NCBI GenBank assembly: GCA_039180415.1
Contig: JBCDDH010000009.1
Span: forward strand, 1 to 40,000
Direction of reading: 5' to 3'
Length of the DNA: 40,000 nt
Source: Planctomycetota bacterium
GTDB taxonomy: Bacteria > Planctomycetota > Phycisphaerae > Phycisphaerales > Phycisphaeraceae
Shown: piece by piece, positions 23,976 through 30,339 of the stretch
How the letters are laid out: each line of letters begins with the position of its first letter
How positions within the stretch are numbered: the stretch's first letter is position 1
Translations under genes and position numbers: made by a program
Notes under the pieces: generated by a model
What the model was told of the DNA's origin: nothing
The model's database searches: none
What the model saw: only the letters and a program-made list of their open reading frames with translations

Positions 23976-24013
23976 GCGGACGAGAGGATCAGGCGGCTGG
24001 GCCGTAGGTGCGT

Positions 24014-25159
24014 TCATCCTTCCGTCTTGTGATTCAGCAGCCAGGCCGTGATCGCCTCGAAGTCGAAGTCGTTCTCGGGAAAGTCGCGGATCGTGGTCCG
24101 AGCTCCGCTGCCCAACGCCAGTAAGACCACACGGCCTTGCCCGATCTGGCCGACGACCATCACGGGCATCTGACCGGTCGGCGGGTCGGCGGTCCGCGGT
24201 TGGCCGTTATGGTCGGTGACGGGCACGGTCTGGGGTCGGTGGATTAGCAGCACCGCGGAGGCGACGGGCTCGAAAATCCAGGCGCAGGTGAAGGCATACA
24301 CGGTTTGGCCGGGCGAAAACCCCGGGATGGTCGGATGCGTCGCCAGCACGTCCGCTTCGACTAGTCTCCGCTCGTCCAGCCAGCCTCCTCCTTCGTGGTT
24401 GTGGTGGGAGCCGAGGGGTGTCGGCCGGGCGAGGTTGATTCGCATGACCAGCGGGTGATCGACCCCCGGCCGGTTGCCGCCGGTGAAGTCGTTGGTGTAC
24501 ATCGGCACGCCGGACTCGATCGCGGCGACGAGCGGCGCGAGCACGTCTTCGCGGATGTTGGTGTGGTGGCCCAGGTAGATCAGGTCTAGGCCGGCCCACG
24601 CCTCGGGGTCGGTCGCCGAGACCATCGGCCGATCGGCCAGCCCGCGGTTGACCAATGCCGCGGGGTCGTTTTCGGTGCCCGGCTCGACCAGCAGCACCAC
24701 CTCGTACCGAGGCCCAGCAAGGTGCACCTCGGCCATCCCCAATTGGCGGAAGTAGCCCGGGATCACCGTCTGGTCGGGGTCGATCGACGTCGTCGCCGCC
24801 GTCTGGCTGACCAGCACCCCGACCCGGATCGTCTCCCCGAGCGGGGCGGCAGCGGCGTTGGGGTTGGTCCCGGCGAACCGCGACGGGGACAAGACGGCTA
24901 CCCCTTGCCACACCGCGAAGGTGATGCCGCCGGTAAACACGCCGATCGCGAGCAACAGTTTGAGACCCGAGCCGGTCGCGAGCGCCGCGAGCCCGCCGCC
25001 GGTCGACAACGGCACCCCGCTGACGCCGATGGTCTTCAGCGTGCCGGTCAGCACGACCGGCACCGTCGCCGCCGACGCCGCCTGCTCCAGGCCCACCGTC
25101 AACGCCGCCGCGGTCACCTCTACGCTCCGCCGCCGCAGCACGGTCCGCAACGCGTCCAC
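24014..25159 (-). CDS. Membrane-anchored sensor/anti-sigma-like protein, in frame with the upstream ECF sigma
   Basis: GTG at complement of 25157-25159. One TM (LKLLLAIGVFTGGITFAVWQGVAV), then an extracytoplasmic alpha/beta-looking domain (IRVGVLV..., YEVVLLVEPG, LDLIYLGHHTNIREDVLAPLVAAIESGVPMY). Same reading frame as the sigma gene, separated from it by TAG plus one codon. Confidence 0.7.
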   Translation of the reverse strand: MDALRTVLRRRSVEVTAAALTVGLEQAASAATVPVVLTGTLKTIGVSGVPLSTGGGLAALATGSGLKLLLAIGVFTGGITFAVWQGVAVLSPSRFAGTNPNAAAAPLGETIRVGVLVSQTAATTSIDPDQTVIPGYFRQLGMAEVHLAGPRYEVVLLVEPGTENDPAALVNRGLADRPMVSATDPEAWAGLDLIYLGHHTNIREDVLAPLVAAIESGVPMYTNDFTGGNRPGVDHPLVMRINLARPTPLGSHHNHEGGGWLDERRLVEADVLATHPTIPGFSPGQTVYAFTCAWIFEPVASAVLLIHRPQTVPVTDHNGQPRTADPPTGQMPVMVVGQIGQGRVVLLALGSGARTTIRDFPENDFDFEAITAWLLNHKTEG

Positions 25160-25162
25160 CGC

Positions 25163-25639
25163 CTAGGCCGAACGCCGGCTCATGGTCGGGACGCTGGTGC
25201 CGTGCCGACTCGCCAACTGCTGAAGCGTTTGGCTCCGCAGATAGCGGTCGACGATCAATGCGCGGTGGGCCTCGTCCAGCTCCAGCATCGCCTCGTCGAC
25301 CAGGGGTTGCAGTTCTGCCCAACGGGTCGCCTCGGTGCCCCGTTGAAGCCGGGCCCACTCCCGGGCGCGCCGGTCCTGGGAGTCGCGCCGCCGGATCCGG
25401 TCGAGGCAAGTGGTCGTCGCGGTCCGCTGAAGCCATCCCCCCAGGCTGGACTGGATCGCCTCGGCGTGCCGGGCCAGCTTGAGGAACGTGTCCTGTGCCG
25501 CGTCCTCGGCGTCCGTCGCGTTACGCAGCGTCCGCAGGCAGACGCCGTAAACCATCTCTTGGTAGCGGTCCACCAGCAACGCAAACGCGTCGGGGTCTCG
25601 GTGTTTCTGGTATCGCCGCAGCGCCGTGTTGTCCGTCAT
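25163..25639 (-). CDS. ECF-type RNA polymerase sigma-70 factor (region 4.2 cut short by TAG)
   Basis: Region 2: DAFALLVDRYQEMVYGVCLRTLRNATDAEDAAQDTFLKL. Region 4: ALIVDRYLRSQTLQQLASRHGTSVPTMSRRSA-stop. GGGAGAG lies 5 nt upstream of the ATG at complement of 25637-25639; alternative starts at 25660 and 25663. Confidence 0.85.
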   Translation of the reverse strand: MTDNTALRRYQKHRDPDAFALLVDRYQEMVYGVCLRTLRNATDAEDAAQDTFLKLARHAEAIQSSLGGWLQRTATTTCLDRIRRRDSQDRRAREWARLQRGTEATRWAELQPLVDEAMLELDEAHRALIVDRYLRSQTLQQLASRHGTSVPTMSRRSA

Positions 25640-25678
25640 CGAAGCTCTCCCGGTGTGCATCACCCCCTCGCAGGACGC

Positions 25679-25703
25679 ACGCCCGGGGCAGATTTTTCAT
25701 TCC
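25679..25703 (-). promoter_or_regulatory. Candidate ECF-type promoter (GGAAT-N17-CGT) upstream of the sigma gene
   Basis: The minus strand reads GGAATgaaaaatctgccccgggCGTGCG about 40 nt upstream of the ATG. This resembles the GGAAC-N16/17-CGT pattern of autoregulated ECF promoters. Motif match only. Confidence 0.3.
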
Positions 25704-25787
25704 GACATAATCCTGGGCAAACGCGGCTTCGACCGGGCCCGCGCCGCTCTTCGCGGAGCGATCACACCGTCACCGAAAGCCCTGCGC

Positions 25788-25932
25788 GCCGAGCGCCGCG
25801 ACGGTGCACGCATTGACGGAGGGTTGGCGTGATTGGGGTACCCGGGACGCGTGGGGGAACCCGTGGCTGTCGGGTACTCAGTGAGCGTGGCGGACCCGCG
25901 GGTCAGGGGCAATGGGGATTGGCGAGGTGTGA
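25788..25932 (+). pseudogene. Decayed duplicate of the 3' end of the nucleotidyltransferase gene
   Basis: 25818-25932 aligns without gaps to 23861-23975 (the last 115 nt of the NTase gene including GAGGTGTGA), with about 95 of 115 positions identical by hand count. Weaker similarity with a 9-nt deletion extends upstream to 25788 (vs 23822), possibly to about 25745. The copy has an in-frame TGA (...WLSGTQ*) and no 5' part. Confidence 0.75.
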
Positions 25933-25991
25933 GTCGATTGCGTTTTCATTCGGCCGCGGTCTTCAGTGAAGATCGAGCGTAAGCCATTGCA

Positions 25992-26717
25992 TCAATTTCG
26001 CAGCCCCCTGGCCGGGTAGCACCGCCATGCGATAAGCGCGAGAATGCTCGGCACGAACAATGCGGATAAAGACTGTGAGACCGCCTGCCAACGGACAACG
26101 GTTTCTAATTCTTTGACGCTCCCGAAGCTGAGGAGCAACGCGTTCACAAAGGGGGCGAACAAGGTCAGTAAGACCGTAGCGCCGATGAGGCCGCTGAATA
26201 AAACCAGAGGGCGGGCGATGATCCATCGGTTGATGGCGGATAAACCCGAGAACGTTCGGCCCCGACTCAACCGCCAAACGCCGGCGACCAAGGTGATCCA
26301 CACCACGCCGTATGCGGCGACCAGGCCGAACGAGACGAGCGACGGAGCGAGGGCTTTTTCTGCCATCAACCAGAACGACAAGGGCCCGAGCACCGAAAGC
26401 ATTGCCTTCGGGAGAATCCAGAGGGCGAACATACCCAGCACCATCCAGACGATCCGGCGTTGCCATGCTCGGCCAGGTTCCGCTTCGAGGTAGGCGCGCT
26501 GCAAGTCTGATGGAGCGCCAACACGGCGTGCCGCGATCAGCACGCGTTCCCAAGGATCGAGGCCGTGTTCGGGGATCTTCTCCAATTCGGTTTCCAGGTG
26601 ATCCTGCAATTCGTCGAGTTGATCGGGCGCGATCGCGTCTTCCTGAGCGAGGCGGTCTCGCCATCGGCGGACGAGGGTGTCGAGGTGGGACGTGGGTGGG
26701 TTGGTTGATTCAAGCAT
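25992..26717 (-). CDS. PadR-associated membrane protein, paralog 1 (N-terminal helical prefix domain plus about 4-5 TM)
   Basis: ATG at complement of 26715-26717 gives MLESTNPPTSHLDTLVRRWRDRLAQEDAIAPDQLDELQDHLETELEKIPEHGLDPWERVLIAARRVGAPSDLQRAYLE, followed by hydrophobic helices. The N-terminal domain is shared with the four ORFs upstream. Confidence 0.75.
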   Translation of the reverse strand: MLESTNPPTSHLDTLVRRWRDRLAQEDAIAPDQLDELQDHLETELEKIPEHGLDPWERVLIAARRVGAPSDLQRAYLEAEPGRAWQRRIVWMVLGMFALWILPKAMLSVLGPLSFWLMAEKALAPSLVSFGLVAAYGVVWITLVAGVWRLSRGRTFSGLSAINRWIIARPLVLFSGLIGATVLLTLFAPFVNALLLSFGSVKELETVVRWQAVSQSLSALFVPSILALIAWRCYPARGLRN

Positions 26718-26736
26718 GATTGGTTTCTCTGTTTCT

Positions 26737-27216
26737 TCAGGCGAGCCGTCGTTGGCGTTGGACGAGTTTCCAGGCGGCGAAGGTGCCCGCGGACAAGACG
26801 GCGAGCATGGCCAACGCCTGCGGGAAACCGCGGATGGCGTCCTGGATGGCGTCGCCGGTCGGCCCGAACCAATCGTCGAGTTCTCGTTCAAATTCCCACG
26901 CGCCGTGGCCGGCGAACAAGGCCAAGACCGGGGTGCCCAACAGGATCGCGGCGAACATGAGCTTGGCCGGAACGGAGACTTGCAGGCTTGTGGCGTGCGA
27001 CGCGGGCAGCAGCGGTTGGCCGAGCCGATCGGCGGCGACGACGACACGCTCCCGCGGGCTGAGCGACGTGTCGTTGAGGTTCTGGAGTTCGCTGCGCAGG
27101 TGGTCTTCCAGTTCGTCCCGGCGGTCTTGGGGCAGCCGGCGGAGTTGTTCGGACCATTGCCGGATCAGCGCTTCGGCGGGGTCGGTGGCGGGCGTGGAGG
27201 AAGTTTCGTGCGGCAT
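26737..27216 (-). CDS. PadR-associated membrane protein, paralog 2 (prefix domain plus 2 TM)
   Basis: ATG at complement of 27214-27216 gives MPHETSSTPATDPAEALIRQWSEQLRRLPQDRRDELEDHLRSELQNLNDTSLSPRERVVVAADRLGQP, then LMFAAILLGTPVLALFAG and ALAMLAVLSAGTFAAW. Confidence 0.7.
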   Translation of the reverse strand: MPHETSSTPATDPAEALIRQWSEQLRRLPQDRRDELEDHLRSELQNLNDTSLSPRERVVVAADRLGQPLLPASHATSLQVSVPAKLMFAAILLGTPVLALFAGHGAWEFERELDDWFGPTGDAIQDAIRGFPQALAMLAVLSAGTFAAWKLVQRQRRLA

Positions 27217-27332
27217 CGTGCGAGCTTTCTTTGGAGAAACAAGGGGCAAGAATCGTTGGGTCACTTATCGATCGGTGTTCGTTCGTTGGGTAGATGGCTT
27301 GATCTTTGGTTGCTTCGGTCGTCTTGAGGGCG

Positions 27333-28025
27333 TCACATACCGACCTGCCGGTGGTTGAGGCGATGGATCACGACGGCTTGTACGAACAGGCCGGTTCCGG
27401 CGAGCGCCGCCAAGCCAATAGCCGCGGCGGTGAACTTGAAAATGAATTTCGCGTTGCTTGGGCTAGCTGGCGAGTCGAACAGGTTGGCCCAGATCATCAA
27501 CCCTGCGAAAGCGTGGAGCAGGACGCCCAACAGCCCGGCGAGGTAGACCGACGCCCGGCCGTAGACCAGGAGGCTGAGCATTGTCATCGGGATGAGCAAC
27601 ATCAGGGCGACTTCGATCACGTCGATCGGCCATGAGCCCTGAGCCGACATCACGCTGCGGGTGCCGCCCCAAACGAAGCCGGGGGCCACGACGGCCACCG
27701 CTGTGAACGGAATCACCAACAGGGCGCCGATCAACGTGACGTTTCCCATCGCGATCGTGAGGTGCAATACGTTGAGCGGTGACCATGACCACCGCCGCTT
27801 TGAGGCGCGGGTCTTGCGGTATTCGGTCGCGAGACGCGTGGTTTCCCCAAGTTGCTCGGCCGCGATTTGGAACGCGGCAAGTTCGGTCTGACCTTGGCGC
27901 AGCTCTGCCGCGATGGCGTCACGGAGGTGGCTCTCCAACTCGTCGATCTCATGGCGGGTCAACACATTGTGTTGCTCCAGGTTGCGCCGCCACCGCCGGA
28001 TGTGACTGTTTATGTCGTCGGGCAT
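27333..28025 (-). CDS. PadR-associated membrane protein, paralog 3 (prefix domain plus about 4 TM)
   Basis: ATG at complement of 28023-28025 gives MPDDINSHIRRWRRNLEQHNVLTRHEIDELESHLRDAIAAELRQGQTELAAFQIAAEQLGETTRLATEY, then four hydrophobic helices. Confidence 0.75.
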   Translation of the reverse strand: MPDDINSHIRRWRRNLEQHNVLTRHEIDELESHLRDAIAAELRQGQTELAAFQIAAEQLGETTRLATEYRKTRASKRRWSWSPLNVLHLTIAMGNVTLIGALLVIPFTAVAVVAPGFVWGGTRSVMSAQGSWPIDVIEVALMLLIPMTMLSLLVYGRASVYLAGLLGVLLHAFAGLMIWANLFDSPASPSNAKFIFKFTAAAIGLAALAGTGLFVQAVVIHRLNHRQVGM

Positions 28026-28105
28026 GGCTTGAGTCCCAAGGGGTTGGCGAGGGTGTTGTCGACGGCGAGCCGGTCGCGGCGTTGCTTGGGCCGTGGCTGG
28101 ATTGA
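28026..28105 (-). pseudogene. Relic of a PadR gene 3' end (between paralogs 4 and 3)
   Basis: The minus strand translates KQRRDRLAVDNTLANPLGLKPCPTT*, compared with the intact PadR tail QEQRRDWLAVHNTLADLWGIKPCPTT*. As in the intact pair, the relic tail overlaps the MPDDIN start of the next gene. No PadR N-terminal part remains. Confidence 0.75.
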
Positions 28106-28603
28106 TCAGGCGGCGAGGGACCGCATCGCGTAGGCATCGCGCGTTTTGCGGGTGACCCAGGTCAGCTCGTAGGCCAGCGCGACGACCGCCAGCAGGGTGG
28201 CGGGCAAAAGAACGATCCAGAAACCACCGAACCACGGGTCGCCGTTCCAAGGATTCAACAGGTCGAGATCTTGGCGGCTCCAGCTTTCCGCGATCACCAC
28301 ATACAGCACGGGCATCGCGAACAGGCAACGCACCGCGGAGAGGCCATAGTCCCGTAGCCCGGGGCGGAAGCCGCGCTGAAATTCTCGAACCAGTCGGCCC
28401 GATCGACCCAGGCGCATCACCGCGACGATCGCTTTTTCTTGCGGGGATAACGGCAGCCCGTCGAAGGCCGAAAGGTTGGTGCGTAGGTGGTCTTCGAGTT
28501 CGTCACGCTGCGCCCGCGACAGCCCGGACAGCGACCGTCGCCACCGCGCGATCGATAGCTCGGTTTCGCTCGCGCCGTGTGGTGTGTTTATGTCGTCGGG
28601 CAT
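28106..28603 (-). CDS. PadR-associated membrane protein, paralog 4 (prefix domain plus 2 TM)
   Basis: ATG at complement of 28601-28603 gives MPDDINTPHGASETELSIARWRRSLSGLSRAQRDELEDHLRTNLSAFDGLPLSPQEKAIVAVMRLGRSGRLVREF, then two hydrophobic helices. Confidence 0.75.
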   Translation of the reverse strand: MPDDINTPHGASETELSIARWRRSLSGLSRAQRDELEDHLRTNLSAFDGLPLSPQEKAIVAVMRLGRSGRLVREFQRGFRPGLRDYGLSAVRCLFAMPVLYVVIAESWSRQDLDLLNPWNGDPWFGGFWIVLLPATLLAVVALAYELTWVTRKTRDAYAMRSLAA

Positions 28604-28690
28604 GGCTTGAGTCCCCAAAGGTCGGCGAGGGAGTTGTGGACGGCGAGCCAGCCACGGCGTTGATCGCGCGGGCGTTCGCCGGATGCACGT
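28604..28690 (-). pseudogene. Relic of a PadR gene 3' end (between paralogs 5 and 4)
   Basis: The minus strand contains ...WLAVHNSLADLWGLKPCPTT* (frameshifted further upstream), near-identical to the intact PadR tail, and again overlaps the MPDDIN start codon of the downstream paralog. Confidence 0.75.
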
Positions 28691-29416
28691 TTAGGCGGTG
28701 CGGAATCGACGCCACCCCACCCACAGTGCGATGCCGGGCAGGATCAACGGCAGGACGACTTGATGCATCCAGAACTGGATGTCGTGGTACGCCCGGAATT
28801 TCACCAAATCATTGAAGTTCGCCGCTTGCTGATCGATCCCCGGCAGCGCGACCCACCGGGCGAGTAACGGTGTGGCCGTCAACACCACAAGCGCAACCCA
28901 CAGCGAGAAACCCAGTGAAGTTGAGGCGTTTGGACGATACTTTCGTTCGCGTACGAGTCGGCCACGGCCCAGCAGAACGATCCCCACGCAAAGTCCGGCG
29001 ATCAAGAGCCCGTTGGTGGTTGCGATCAAGCCGAACCATCCCGCGTACGGCAGGACGACCTCTTCGGTCAGGACCAACGCCGAGATAAACAGCCAGCCGG
29101 TGAGGTGTTGGTACGCAAGAAACCCCAGCACGCCCGCGGCCATCCAGGTCAGGCGTCGGGACCACAGCCGACCGCCCGACGAGCGTGTGAATTCCCGCAC
29201 GAGCGCGTCGGGATGGCCGATGCGGCATGTGGCGATCGTGAATCGCTCCGTCGGGGACAGCGCTCTCAACGAGGGGTCCTGCATCGACCGCTGAAGATGG
29301 TCTTCGAGTTCGTCGATTGCCGGTGGATCGAGCATGCCGTCGGACGCGACGCGGTGACGCCAGCCGCGGACGAGCGTATCGAGTTCGGCCGGTTCGCGGT
29401 TCACGTCGTCGGGCAT
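28691..29416 (-). CDS. PadR-associated membrane protein, paralog 5 (prefix domain plus about 4 TM)
   Basis: ATG at complement of 29414-29416, 16 nt inside the PadR gene. Sequence: MPDDVNREPAELDTLVRGWRHRVASDGMLDPPAIDELEDHLQRSMQDPSLRALSPTERFTIATCRIGHPDALVREF, then four hydrophobic helices. Confidence 0.78.
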   Translation of the reverse strand: MPDDVNREPAELDTLVRGWRHRVASDGMLDPPAIDELEDHLQRSMQDPSLRALSPTERFTIATCRIGHPDALVREFTRSSGGRLWSRRLTWMAAGVLGFLAYQHLTGWLFISALVLTEEVVLPYAGWFGLIATTNGLLIAGLCVGIVLLGRGRLVRERKYRPNASTSLGFSLWVALVVLTATPLLARWVALPGIDQQAANFNDLVKFRAYHDIQFWMHQVVLPLILPGIALWVGWRRFRTA

Positions 29417-29745
29417 GGCTTGATTCCCCAAAGGTCGGCGAGGGTGTTGTGGACGGCGAGCCAGTCGCGGCGCTGTTCTTGCAGCGCGGTGTGGCCGGAT
29501 TGTTCGAGGCGGTAGTACTTGCGGCGTCGGCCGGTGTCGGGGGCGGTGTCCCAGCGGCTCTTGATGTGGCCCTGTTTTTCGAGCTTGTGGAGGACGGGGT
29601 AGAGCATGCCGTCGGTCCACTCGAGGTGGCCGCCGGAGCGTCGCTTGACTTCCTGGAGGATGGCGTAGCCGTAGGACTCGCCTTGCTCGAGGATGGAGAG
29701 CACGAGCGGTCGGGCGGAGGCGGCGACGAGGTCTTTGCCGGGCAT
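29401..29745 (-). CDS. PadR-family transcriptional regulator
   Basis: MPGKDLVAASARPLVLSILEQGESYGYAILQEVKRRSGGHLEWTDGMLYPVLHKLEKQGHIKSRWDTAPDTGRRRKYYRLEQSG is the classic PadR winged-helix pattern. An upstream ATG at 29760 lies inside the predicted promoter, so 29745 is preferred. Confidence 0.88.
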   Translation of the reverse strand: MPGKDLVAASARPLVLSILEQGESYGYAILQEVKRRSGGHLEWTDGMLYPVLHKLEKQGHIKSRWDTAPDTGRRRKYYRLEQSGHTALQEQRRDWLAVHNTLADLWGIKPCPTT

Positions 29746-29751
29746 GGCAGT

Positions 29752-29794
29752 ATGATGCATTGAAGATCAATGTATGTCAAGCGCGGCGACATAC
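29752..29794 (-). promoter_or_regulatory. Candidate padR promoter with overlapping inverted-repeat operator
   Basis: The minus strand reads GTATGTCgccgcgcTTGACATACattgatcttcaatgCATCATactgccATG. Perfect -35 TTGACA (29775-29780), 17-nt spacer, -10-like CATCAT (29752-29757), with the ATG 6 nt later (leaderless-like). Perfect inverted repeat GTATGTC-N9-GACATAC (29772-29794) contains ATGT/ACAT half-sites and overlaps the -35. Confidence 0.45.
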
Positions 29795-30027
29795 GATTTC
29801 GGGTTTCTCCGGCTTGAGGCGCAAGCGTGTCAACTTGGCGGGTCTGCTTGGGCGTGCCTTGTTATGCTCGTTTGAGCCGTTTTGGACGATTTGGGGTGGC
29901 CCAGACCAGGCGGCGAACACCGCGTGTCCTCGGCCCGGGCGCGTGGGCGGGTTGTTCGGCCGGCGGCGGACGTCGGCCGGCTCGCGCCGTGATCCCCGGG
30001 CCGTCCGTACGAAGGAAGGTAATTGCG

Positions 30028-30282
30028 ATGTTGAACAAGTTTCTGATGATGCTGGCGTTGGGTGTGTTCACCGTGTCGATCGTGGCGTGCGAGCAGGCCG
30101 AGACCGATCTGGAGTCGGCCGCGGGCGAGGTCGAAGCCGCCGCCGGTGACGCCGCCGAGGCCGCGGAAGGGACCGCGGGCGACATGATGGAAGCCGCCGA
30201 AGAAGCCGCGGGCGACGCGGCCGAGGCCGCGGAAGACGCGGCGGAAGAGGCCGGCGAAGCATTGAACAACGTGCTGAACTAA
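30028..30282 (+). CDS. Small acidic Ala/Glu-rich lipoprotein with internal repeat
   Basis: GAAGGAAGG upstream of ATG 30028. MLNKFLMMLALGVFTVSIVAC (lipobox-like IVAC), then AAGDAAEAAE-type repeats. A 25-nt near-identical direct repeat at 30145-30169 and 30211-30235 (2 mismatches, 66-nt period). Confidence 0.7.
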   Translation: MLNKFLMMLALGVFTVSIVACEQAETDLESAAGEVEAAAGDAAEAAEGTAGDMMEAAEEAAGDAAEAAEDAAEEAGEALNNVLN

Positions 30283-30306
30283 GCCGCGTTTTCAGAGAAG
30301 ATCACG

Positions 30307-30339
30307 CCGCCGACCCGTGAGCGCGGGTCGGCGGTTTTT
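30307..30339 (+). terminator. Rho-independent terminator
   Basis: Perfect 11-bp stem CCGCCGACCCG (30307-30317) / CGGGTCGGCGG (30324-30334), 6-nt loop, then TTTTT (30335-30339). Confidence 0.8.

Follow-up and report, generated by a model that had tools for sequence, protein, structure and literature searches.

Why should a single gene for a PadR-type repressor be followed by five tandem genes for membrane proteins that share one N-terminal domain and little else? The question is raised by positions 25,992 to 29,794 of contig JBCDDH010000009.1, which comes from a marine Planctomycetota metagenome-assembled genome (MAG); "the window" below means the whole stretch analyzed, the first 40,000 nucleotides (nt) of that contig. 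Pairs of a PadR protein and a membrane protein bearing such a domain (here called the prefix, and in the literature HAAS or permease prefix 1) are already known, from bioinformatic prediction and from Listeria genetics. Our preferred answer, which we think probable though far from certain, is that the locus is a PadR-HAAS regulatory operon whose membrane partner has been amplified into five divergent paralogs, all of which would modulate the one PadR. The main argument for a prefix that works with PadR is genetic linkage: the coupling between the two is strong whatever membrane body the prefix carries.

One padR gene and five prefix genes

The six open reading frames (ORFs) lie on the minus strand, exactly where the original prediction, a reading of the bare sequence, had placed them:

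29401-29745, minus strand: padR, a short PadR-type winged-helix regulator of 114 amino acids (aa); the ORF itself runs 29401-29760
28691-29416, minus strand: P1, 241 aa, prefix and body of four transmembrane (TM) helices; its first 16 nt overlap the end of padR
28106-28603, minus strand: P2, 165 aa, prefix and 2-TM body; its last ~16 codons extend, without a change of frame, into the next padR remnant
27333-28025, minus strand: P3, 230 aa, prefix and 4-TM body; annotated AAGE65_02975
26737-27216, minus strand: P4, 159 aa, prefix and 2-TM body with a conserved outward loop of ~40 aa; AAGE65_02970
25992-26717, minus strand: P5, 241 aa, prefix and 4-TM body; ancestral, widespread partner type

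That the genes follow one another "without interruption" is nearly right: after the 16-nt overlap of padR and P1, the gaps between the following genes are 87, 80, 116 and 19 nt, and a terminator scan found no convincing minus-strand terminator within the array. The predicted dip in GC content was there relative to the immediate flanks (0.62-0.635 in the array versus 0.65-0.72), but it is not exceptional for the window, other parts of which are equally low (0.58-0.625). Most of the drop comes from third codon positions, whose GC content (GC3) is 0.72-0.82 in the five partner genes as against 0.85-0.92 in their neighbors. All five show the order GC3 > GC1 > GC2 (first and second codon positions being GC1 and GC2), which is the pattern of real genes in a GC-rich genome.

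The regulator matches PF03551 (E 1.3e-23, 83.2 bits, residues 20-95) and passes its gathering cut-off of 27. Its best NCBIfam match is TIGR03433 (padR_acidobact), at 83.7 bits and thus below the cut-off of 101.8; PadR is a relative of that family and not a member. The likelier start of padR is the ATG at 29745; the upstream ATG at 29760 falls within the predicted promoter spacer described below.

As had been claimed for the first 70-90 residues, the N termini of P1-P5 are homologous: nine of the ten pairs of 90-aa segments are significant by BLASTP, with E-values of 3e-4 to 2e-17 computed at a nominal database size of 1e6 residues. The columns W19, D35, E36, L37, H40, L41, A62 and G67 are invariant across the five prefixes. 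A GxP motif is complete in P1 (GHP), P4 (GQP) and P5 (GAP), with the glycine only in P2 (GRS) and P3 (GET). When the C-terminal halves are compared on their own, BLAST detects no similarity among the five, and the prediction of differing bodies in proteins of 159-241 aa was borne out, hydropathy giving two TM segments in P2 and P4 and four in P1, P3 and P5. A trace motif, P..WFG, can still be aligned across the bodies after the first TM helix. In all five proteins the first loop is poor in basic residues and the C-terminal tail is basic, so that a topology with both ends inside fits and the prefix would be cytoplasmic.

Family identity of the prefix

At the level of the family, sequence comparison assigns the prefix clearly to NCBIfam permease prefix 1 (NF038403), that is, to the HAAS domain. 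This was not apparent from the individual sequences. P3 comes just under the NF038403 cut-off of 30 (29.2 bits, E 6e-7), and P1, P2, P4 and P5 give no match to it at E <= 1. The best score against Pfam HAAS (PF22564) is that of P4, 15.6 bits (E 0.022) under a cut-off of 27, and none of the 52 family members matches that model at E <= 0.01. DUF1700, the Pfam family also named in the original prediction, drew no match from any of the five at E <= 1. A profile of the five N termini, however, retrieved 48 proteins from a database of 5.8 billion protein clusters, one of them named as a permease-prefix-1 protein, and 39 of the 52 sequences in the alignment from this window profile match NF038403 (best E 5.6e-14). 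When the five N termini were compared by hhalign with nine PadR-adjacent prefixes from other phyla, the two groups aligned at 99% probability (E 5.7e-18, 78 columns). Those PadR-adjacent prefixes themselves pass NF038403, at 34-42 bits, and their bodies are ADOP/FtsX, CcsB-like, MotA-like or unknown. The two family names meet in a PadR-adjacent protein at locus L011, where HAAS (23.8 bits) and NF038403 match the same residues. The proposed kinship with the permease prefixes that sit beside PadR genes therefore stands, the NF038403 check succeeding for the profile and the family and failing for single sequences.

Predicted structure points the same way. The HAAS domain is described as three successive helices, the third of them kinked at a conserved GxP motif, in architectures that include FtsX/MacB fusions and uncharacterized 2-, 4- and 6-TM fusions (PMC11237479). 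AlphaFold 2 models of P5 residues 1-95 and of full-length P1 agree with this description, with helices predicted at 7-25, 31-47 and 55-66, a break at 67-68 (the kink G67-x-P69) and a helix at 69-78. The prefix core has a predicted local distance difference test score (pLDDT) of 77-87 in these models; for full-length P1 the prefix reaches about 80-87 and the body about 40-60, which makes the membrane part unreliable. A similarity to DUF1048 (PDB 2O3L), a solved structure of the HAAS superfamily, was also looked for, but the best E reached by Foldseek in the PDB was about 1 and a PDB profile search returned only coiled-coil noise, small helical domains of this kind being hard to match.

The bodies of P1-P5 lie outside the permease part of the family. 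The ADOP and FtsX-MacB models TIGR03434, PF02687 and PF12704 are absent from all five, as had been foreseen, and are present in the partners at loci L038 and L039.

Prefix genes are linked to PadR

Linkage was assessed by a prefix hidden Markov model scan of 131 PadR loci, comprising 49 from species-representative genomes and 80 from metagenomes, gathered with the PadR protein as query, and L002 and L004, two close relatives of the window locus. A prefix gene lies directly downstream of padR in 109 of the 131: one gene in 98 loci, two in 9 and four in 2. The 22 loci with none are mostly distant PadRs or truncated contigs. In the reverse direction, four prefix proteins picked from long contigs (4/4) have PadR or a PadR-like sequence immediately upstream. 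Unlinking at related loci had been named as one of the results that would speak against the original prediction, and the linkage is kept. The coupling of prefix and PadR is thus strong and independent of the body.

The window array, with five prefix genes, is the largest seen, and both of the four-gene loci are close relatives of the window organism. PadR with two tandem prefix genes recurs at L054, L055, L058, L063, L066, L098, L137 and L140; these two-prefix operons, encoding proteins of ~200 and ~230 aa, come from soil metagenomes and Gemmatimonadota-like genomes, and we found no description of such an arrangement in the literature searched. At L137 and L140 the second prefix copy appears to be split by a frameshift.

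The linkage bears on what the membrane proteins are for. They might be regulated cargo, envelope-protective or membrane-remodeling effectors that PadR simply represses, with a prefix that at most reports the abundance of these proteins back to PadR. Listeria offers a precedent in the DUF1700 protein Lmo0600, regarded as the effector in the lltR operon, whose over-expression causes a cold-growth defect (PMC6624303), and in other phyla the prefix is indeed fused to bodies with activities of their own (ADOP/FtsX permeases, CcsB-like, MotA/ExbB-like). What such a role does not account for is that the prefix accompanies PadR whatever the body, which points to a relationship between prefix and PadR and not to a function of particular bodies. 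No obvious activity suggests itself, moreover, for 2-TM bodies as small as those of P2 and P4; the most conserved body segment of the P4 family is the outward loop, which would fit a sensing role for at least the P4 type; and in Listeria the partner LftS is needed for induction, since aurantimycin de-repression of LftR targets requires it (bioRxiv 10.1101/2023.07.27.550809; PMC11970672). We therefore rate the cargo explanation as rather unlikely.

As a separate observation from the survey, the commonest partner of PadRs that are 55-65% identical to the window PadR is a uniform prefix protein of ~456 aa with a body that has no Pfam domain. It is found at L013, L014, L017, L018, L021 and about 20 other loci, in Actinomycetota, Acidobacteriota, Coriobacteriia, Ignavibacteriota and others, and this wide spread over phyla, together with PadR, suggests a horizontally mobile dyad.

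Growth and variation of the array

Related loci have the same flanks: Suf/Fe-S genes at one end of the array, and at the other a coiled-coil protein and a small Ala/Glu-rich lipoprotein. Between these flanks the number of prefix genes is 1, 2, 4, 4 and 5 in related Planctomycetota genomes, as follows:

L135 (outgroup): PadR 71% identical to that of the window; one P5-type partner of 233 aa, beside the same Fe-S gene
L005: PadR 91% identical; a 2-TM partner, a 102-aa Cys-rich ORF and a prefix-MotA/ExbB-like protein
L002 (the same as L003) and L004: PadR 95-96% identical; four prefix genes each, in different combinations
the window: five prefix genes, without the Cys-rich ORF or the MotA-like gene; in that slot an extracytoplasmic function (ECF) sigma gene and a 381-aa ORF

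L002 and L004 are two versions of the locus from one MAG, on separate contigs. The survey of copy number that had been called for thus revealed a polymorphism between strains, which the original prediction had missed.

The bodies differ greatly in their histories. P5 has 1305 cluster representatives at E <= 1e-3 in an exhaustive HMMER search. At the stricter limit of E <= 1e-10 there are still at least 150, of which many match over a full length of ~230-250 aa, and P5 is on these grounds taken to be the type of partner that is both widespread and ancestral; its identity to the sole partner at L135 is 38.5% over 231 aa. P4 has orthologs at 58-67% identity in L002, L004 and L005, and a metagenome scan with the P4-family alignment gave no matches. 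The bodies of P1 and P3 match only themselves in the database of 5.8 billion protein clusters, and a comparison of the 15 paralogs of four loci detected no relative for those of P1, P2 and P3. The bodies are, in short, fast-diverging or orphan, and "rapidly diversifying", as the original prediction had it, describes them well. PadR by comparison is nearly invariant across the four close loci (nonsynonymous divergence, Ka, 0.03-0.06; synonymous divergence, Ks, 0.22-0.33), the P4 family having Ka of 0.24-0.35 and Ka/Ks of about 0.2-0.37, with 0.28-0.37 for P4 and its orthologs in L002, L004 and L005. The prefix is conserved while the bodies diverge.

Five relatives of P5 (P0080, P0081, P0094, P0109 and P0123, of 408-541 aa) match the query in two separate stretches, which suggests that in some genomes tandem prefix-4TM genes have been fused into one ORF.

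How the array grew can be read from scars that it retains, which the original prediction had missed. An 85-nt direct repeat, D2, consists of the last ~26-45 codons of padR and the start codon of the partner, and two truncated copies of the padR 3' end lie within the array:

28591-28668, minus strand: padR 3' remnant before P2, codons 89-114, 81% aa identity, tblastn E 2.5e-11; found as the D2 repeat and by DNA alignment
28019-28153, minus strand: padR 3' remnant before P3, about codons 71-112, tblastn E 8e-6; overlaps the 3' end of P2

The translation of the remnant before P3 reads ...KQRRDRLAVDNTLANPLGLKPCPT. The new copies preserve the start-codon context GGGGA-N10-ATGCCCGACGAC, the remnant before P2 matching the context at padR/P1, and padR-tail scars also precede the second paralog in L002 and L004. 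These remnants before P2 and P3 show that the array expanded through tandem duplication, the duplicated unit having its start within padR.

With a locus of this kind, the possibility must be weighed that the array is an assembly artefact, the MAG contig having joined the alleles of several strains into a false tandem. A metagenomic source invites the suspicion, and so does a related MAG that carries two differing versions of the locus on separate contigs. The paralogs, though, are only 25-40% identical, far too divergent for alleles; window positions 26348-28036 were recovered at 100% identity in a separate, read-level assembly of a sequencing run, covering P3-P4-P5; and arrays of the same logic occur in L002, L003, L004 and L005. 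We consider an artefact extremely improbable.

A second explanation grants that the array is real and holds it to be mostly evolutionary noise: the locus would be prone to recombination, only P5 (perhaps also P4) would work with PadR, and P1-P3 would be drifting toward loss. In its favor, P5 is the widespread type and the sole partner in the outgroup, the composition of the array varies between co-occurring strains, and the bodies of P1 and P3 have no relatives. The GxP proline has been lost from P2 and P3, but all five keep the DELEDHL, W and G67 columns unchanged; GC3 is below that of the neighboring genes, but the five ORFs are intact and keep the coding GC3 pattern. In each protein, furthermore, the TM helices are still even in number and the C-terminal tail still basic, and Ka/Ks is below 1 wherever it could be measured. 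Such decay strikes us as quite improbable on this balance.

Promoter-like site and candidate operator

Upstream of padR lie two overlapping elements:

29752-29780, minus strand: promoter-like site TTGACA-17-CATCAT, predicted from a consensus scan and the sequence; the sole such site
29758-29772: candidate PadR operator, the palindrome CATTGA(T/A)CTTCAATG, which lies in the spacer that separates the -35 and -10 elements

The promoter block is conserved in L002, L004 and L005, and nothing else in the intergenic region is strongly conserved. The end of the -10 element and the padR ATG at 29745 are 7 nt apart; with so short a distance, the padR mRNA would be leaderless or have a very short leader. 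L002 and L005 carry the spacer palindrome without mismatch, the window with one. It sits at a typical position for a repressor operator and is the preferred candidate for the operator of PadR, whose predicted binding site would be CATTGATCTTCAATG, within 29740-29800. Three PadR-type regulators of Listeria, LltR, LstR and LftR, repress their own operons along with the membrane partners (PMC6624303), LltR doing so about 100-150-fold for its operon with Lmo0600 (PMC6624303). This precedent, the promoter, the palindrome and the terminator-free array together suggest that padR is autoregulated and that all six genes are co-transcribed.

Another inverted repeat, GTATGTC-N9-GACATAC (29772-29794), which overlaps the -35 element upstream of padR, was rejected as a PadR operator, being confined to the window and missing from L002, L004 and L005.

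Proposed mechanism

The preferred reading, that one PadR is modulated by five divergent HAAS-type partners, would work as follows. PadR would repress its own promoter through the conserved spacer palindrome, the six genes being co-transcribed, and the prefixes would each dock, at the membrane, on the one PadR dimer. When one of the TM bodies sensed a perturbation, the contact between its prefix and PadR would change and repression would be relieved, on the model of LftS and LftR; the partners may sequester, release or stabilize PadR. With five bodies, one repressor could integrate several membrane-linked inputs, and since the partners themselves belong to the regulon, the circuit would contain a feedback loop. 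The invariance of prefix residues across five otherwise divergent proteins would fit a shared binding partner.

Several points weigh against this mechanism. Contact between prefix and PadR, which is a published hypothesis for HAAS-PadR dyads (PMC11237479), rests here on gene linkage and the Listeria precedent; co-transcription and operator binding rest on spacing and conservation. The precedent itself is imperfect, as neither LftR nor LftS binds the inducer in vitro (PMC11970672). Four of the five paralogs reach no curated prefix or HAAS model alone. P2 and P3 lack the proline of GxP, the motif proposed to form the docking groove. Finally, the bodies of P1 and P3 are orphans, with low-confidence models and without any mark of a ligand sensor.

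A bolder version can be entertained, in which the array is a strain-specific, cassette-like battery of sensors: a single PadR would read a changeable repertoire of membrane bodies through one adaptor, and recombination at the padR-tail/prefix repeat would both make and shuffle the bodies, the repeat supplying the translation start. If true, this would be many-to-one signaling with built-in diversification, which has not been described for PadR or other one-component regulators. We think this version unlikely.

A role in known anti-phage defense was considered and rejected, PADLOC giving zero matches for PadR, P1-P5, the 381-aa ORF (orf381) or the additional genes of L002.

Neighboring features

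On the far side of P5 from padR, the slot between the conserved flanks is occupied in the window (23976-25991) by the ECF sigma gene and orf381. The ECF sigma ORF (25163-25663, minus strand) has a Sigma70_r2 match at E 2e-15 and lies, within 24014-25663 (minus strand), in the same frame as orf381, from which a single TAG separates it. The text across the TAG, ...TMSRRSA*AVDALRTVLRRR..., reads like one continuous region-4.2 helix, and the pair looks like one gene for a sigma factor to which a TM/extracytoplasmic extension is fused, the split being due to a nonsense codon, a sequencing error or read-through. As a part of the system it was set aside, since it is 329 nt away and absent from L002, L004, L005 and L135. 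The same slot in three relatives (L002:6303-7350, L004:5857-6886 and L005:8102-9128) holds a distal Cys-rich, zinc-ribbon-like ORF of 102-103 aa and the prefix-MotA/ExbB-like protein, whose MotA/ExbB-like body matches PF01618 at E 4e-6.

Beyond padR, at ~30030-30282 on the plus strand, is a small lipoprotein-like ORF, MLNKFLMMLALGVFTVSIVAC..., rich in Ala, Glu and Asp, with 12-nt-periodic internal repeats (family D1) at 30120-30256. It adjoins padR in L002 and L005 too, and is followed in the window by a strong terminator-like hairpin at 30306-30335.

Significance

The original prediction had put the array forward as new. The claim has to be narrowed: the one-to-one dyad is published and operons with two partners recur, whereas the four-to-five-fold amplified array, polymorphic between strains and made up mostly of orphan bodies, has not been described, and neither have the scars of padR-tail duplication. 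The locus is a useful natural experiment on the HAAS-PadR interface and not a new class of system. Its value lies in the state of the field, in which HAAS-PadR pairs are put forward as a widely distributed alternative to two-component signaling while mechanistic data are almost nil. One repressor with five divergent partners, and relatives with one, two or four, offer a comparative test that nature has already set up. Should all five prefixes turn out to bind the one PadR, the invariant residues (W19, DELEDHL, A62 and G67) define the interface, and the variable bodies can be swapped to ask what is sensed; if only the ancestral copy works, the locus is an ordinary unstable array of paralogs. 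The array also offers a route by which the partners of a regulator can expand, the duplication unit starting inside the regulator gene so that the copies keep the translation-start region.

Comparison with known systems

Among the known systems, the NF038403/TIGR03433/TIGR03434 loci of Acidobacteria have the same prefix family and the same order, PadR and then the prefix gene, often with overlapping stop and start. The window differs in that its bodies are small 2- or 4-TM bundles and not duplicated FtsX/MacB permeases, its PadR is below the TIGR03433 cut-off, and only P3 comes within 1 bit of NF038403.

The two-prefix operons of Gemmatimonadota-like and soil genomes resemble the array in having more than one prefix paralog per PadR. 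They have two copies only, however, which are translationally coupled and without padR-tail scars.

In Listeria monocytogenes, LftR-LftS, LltR-Lmo0600 and LstR-SigC-Lmo0421 are likewise PadR operons with a partner of the HAAS superfamily, there autorepressed, the partner being DUF1048, DUF1700 or a RodA-like fusion; an ECF sigma gene adjoins one of these operons, as it does in the window. The phylum and the HAAS subfamilies are nevertheless different, each Listeria repressor has a single partner, and the ECF sigma gene of the window is 329 nt downstream, absent from related loci and interrupted by an in-frame stop.

A further comparison is with the dyad of HAAS and a PadR-like winged helix-turn-helix protein, a predicted obligate pairing proposed as an alternative to two-component signaling (Ravi et al., mSystems 2024, PMC11237479). 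There, as here, a standalone gene for a short PadR stands beside a protein with an N-terminal three-helix domain, its third helix kinked at GxP, and the membrane bodies that follow in the fusion are of 2-TM, 4-TM or other types. The window locus has none of the PspC, Toastrack or LiaF partners and does not reach the Pfam HAAS cut-off. The published dyads have one HAAS protein per PadR, whereas the window has five tandem paralogs in an array whose copy number varies between strains.

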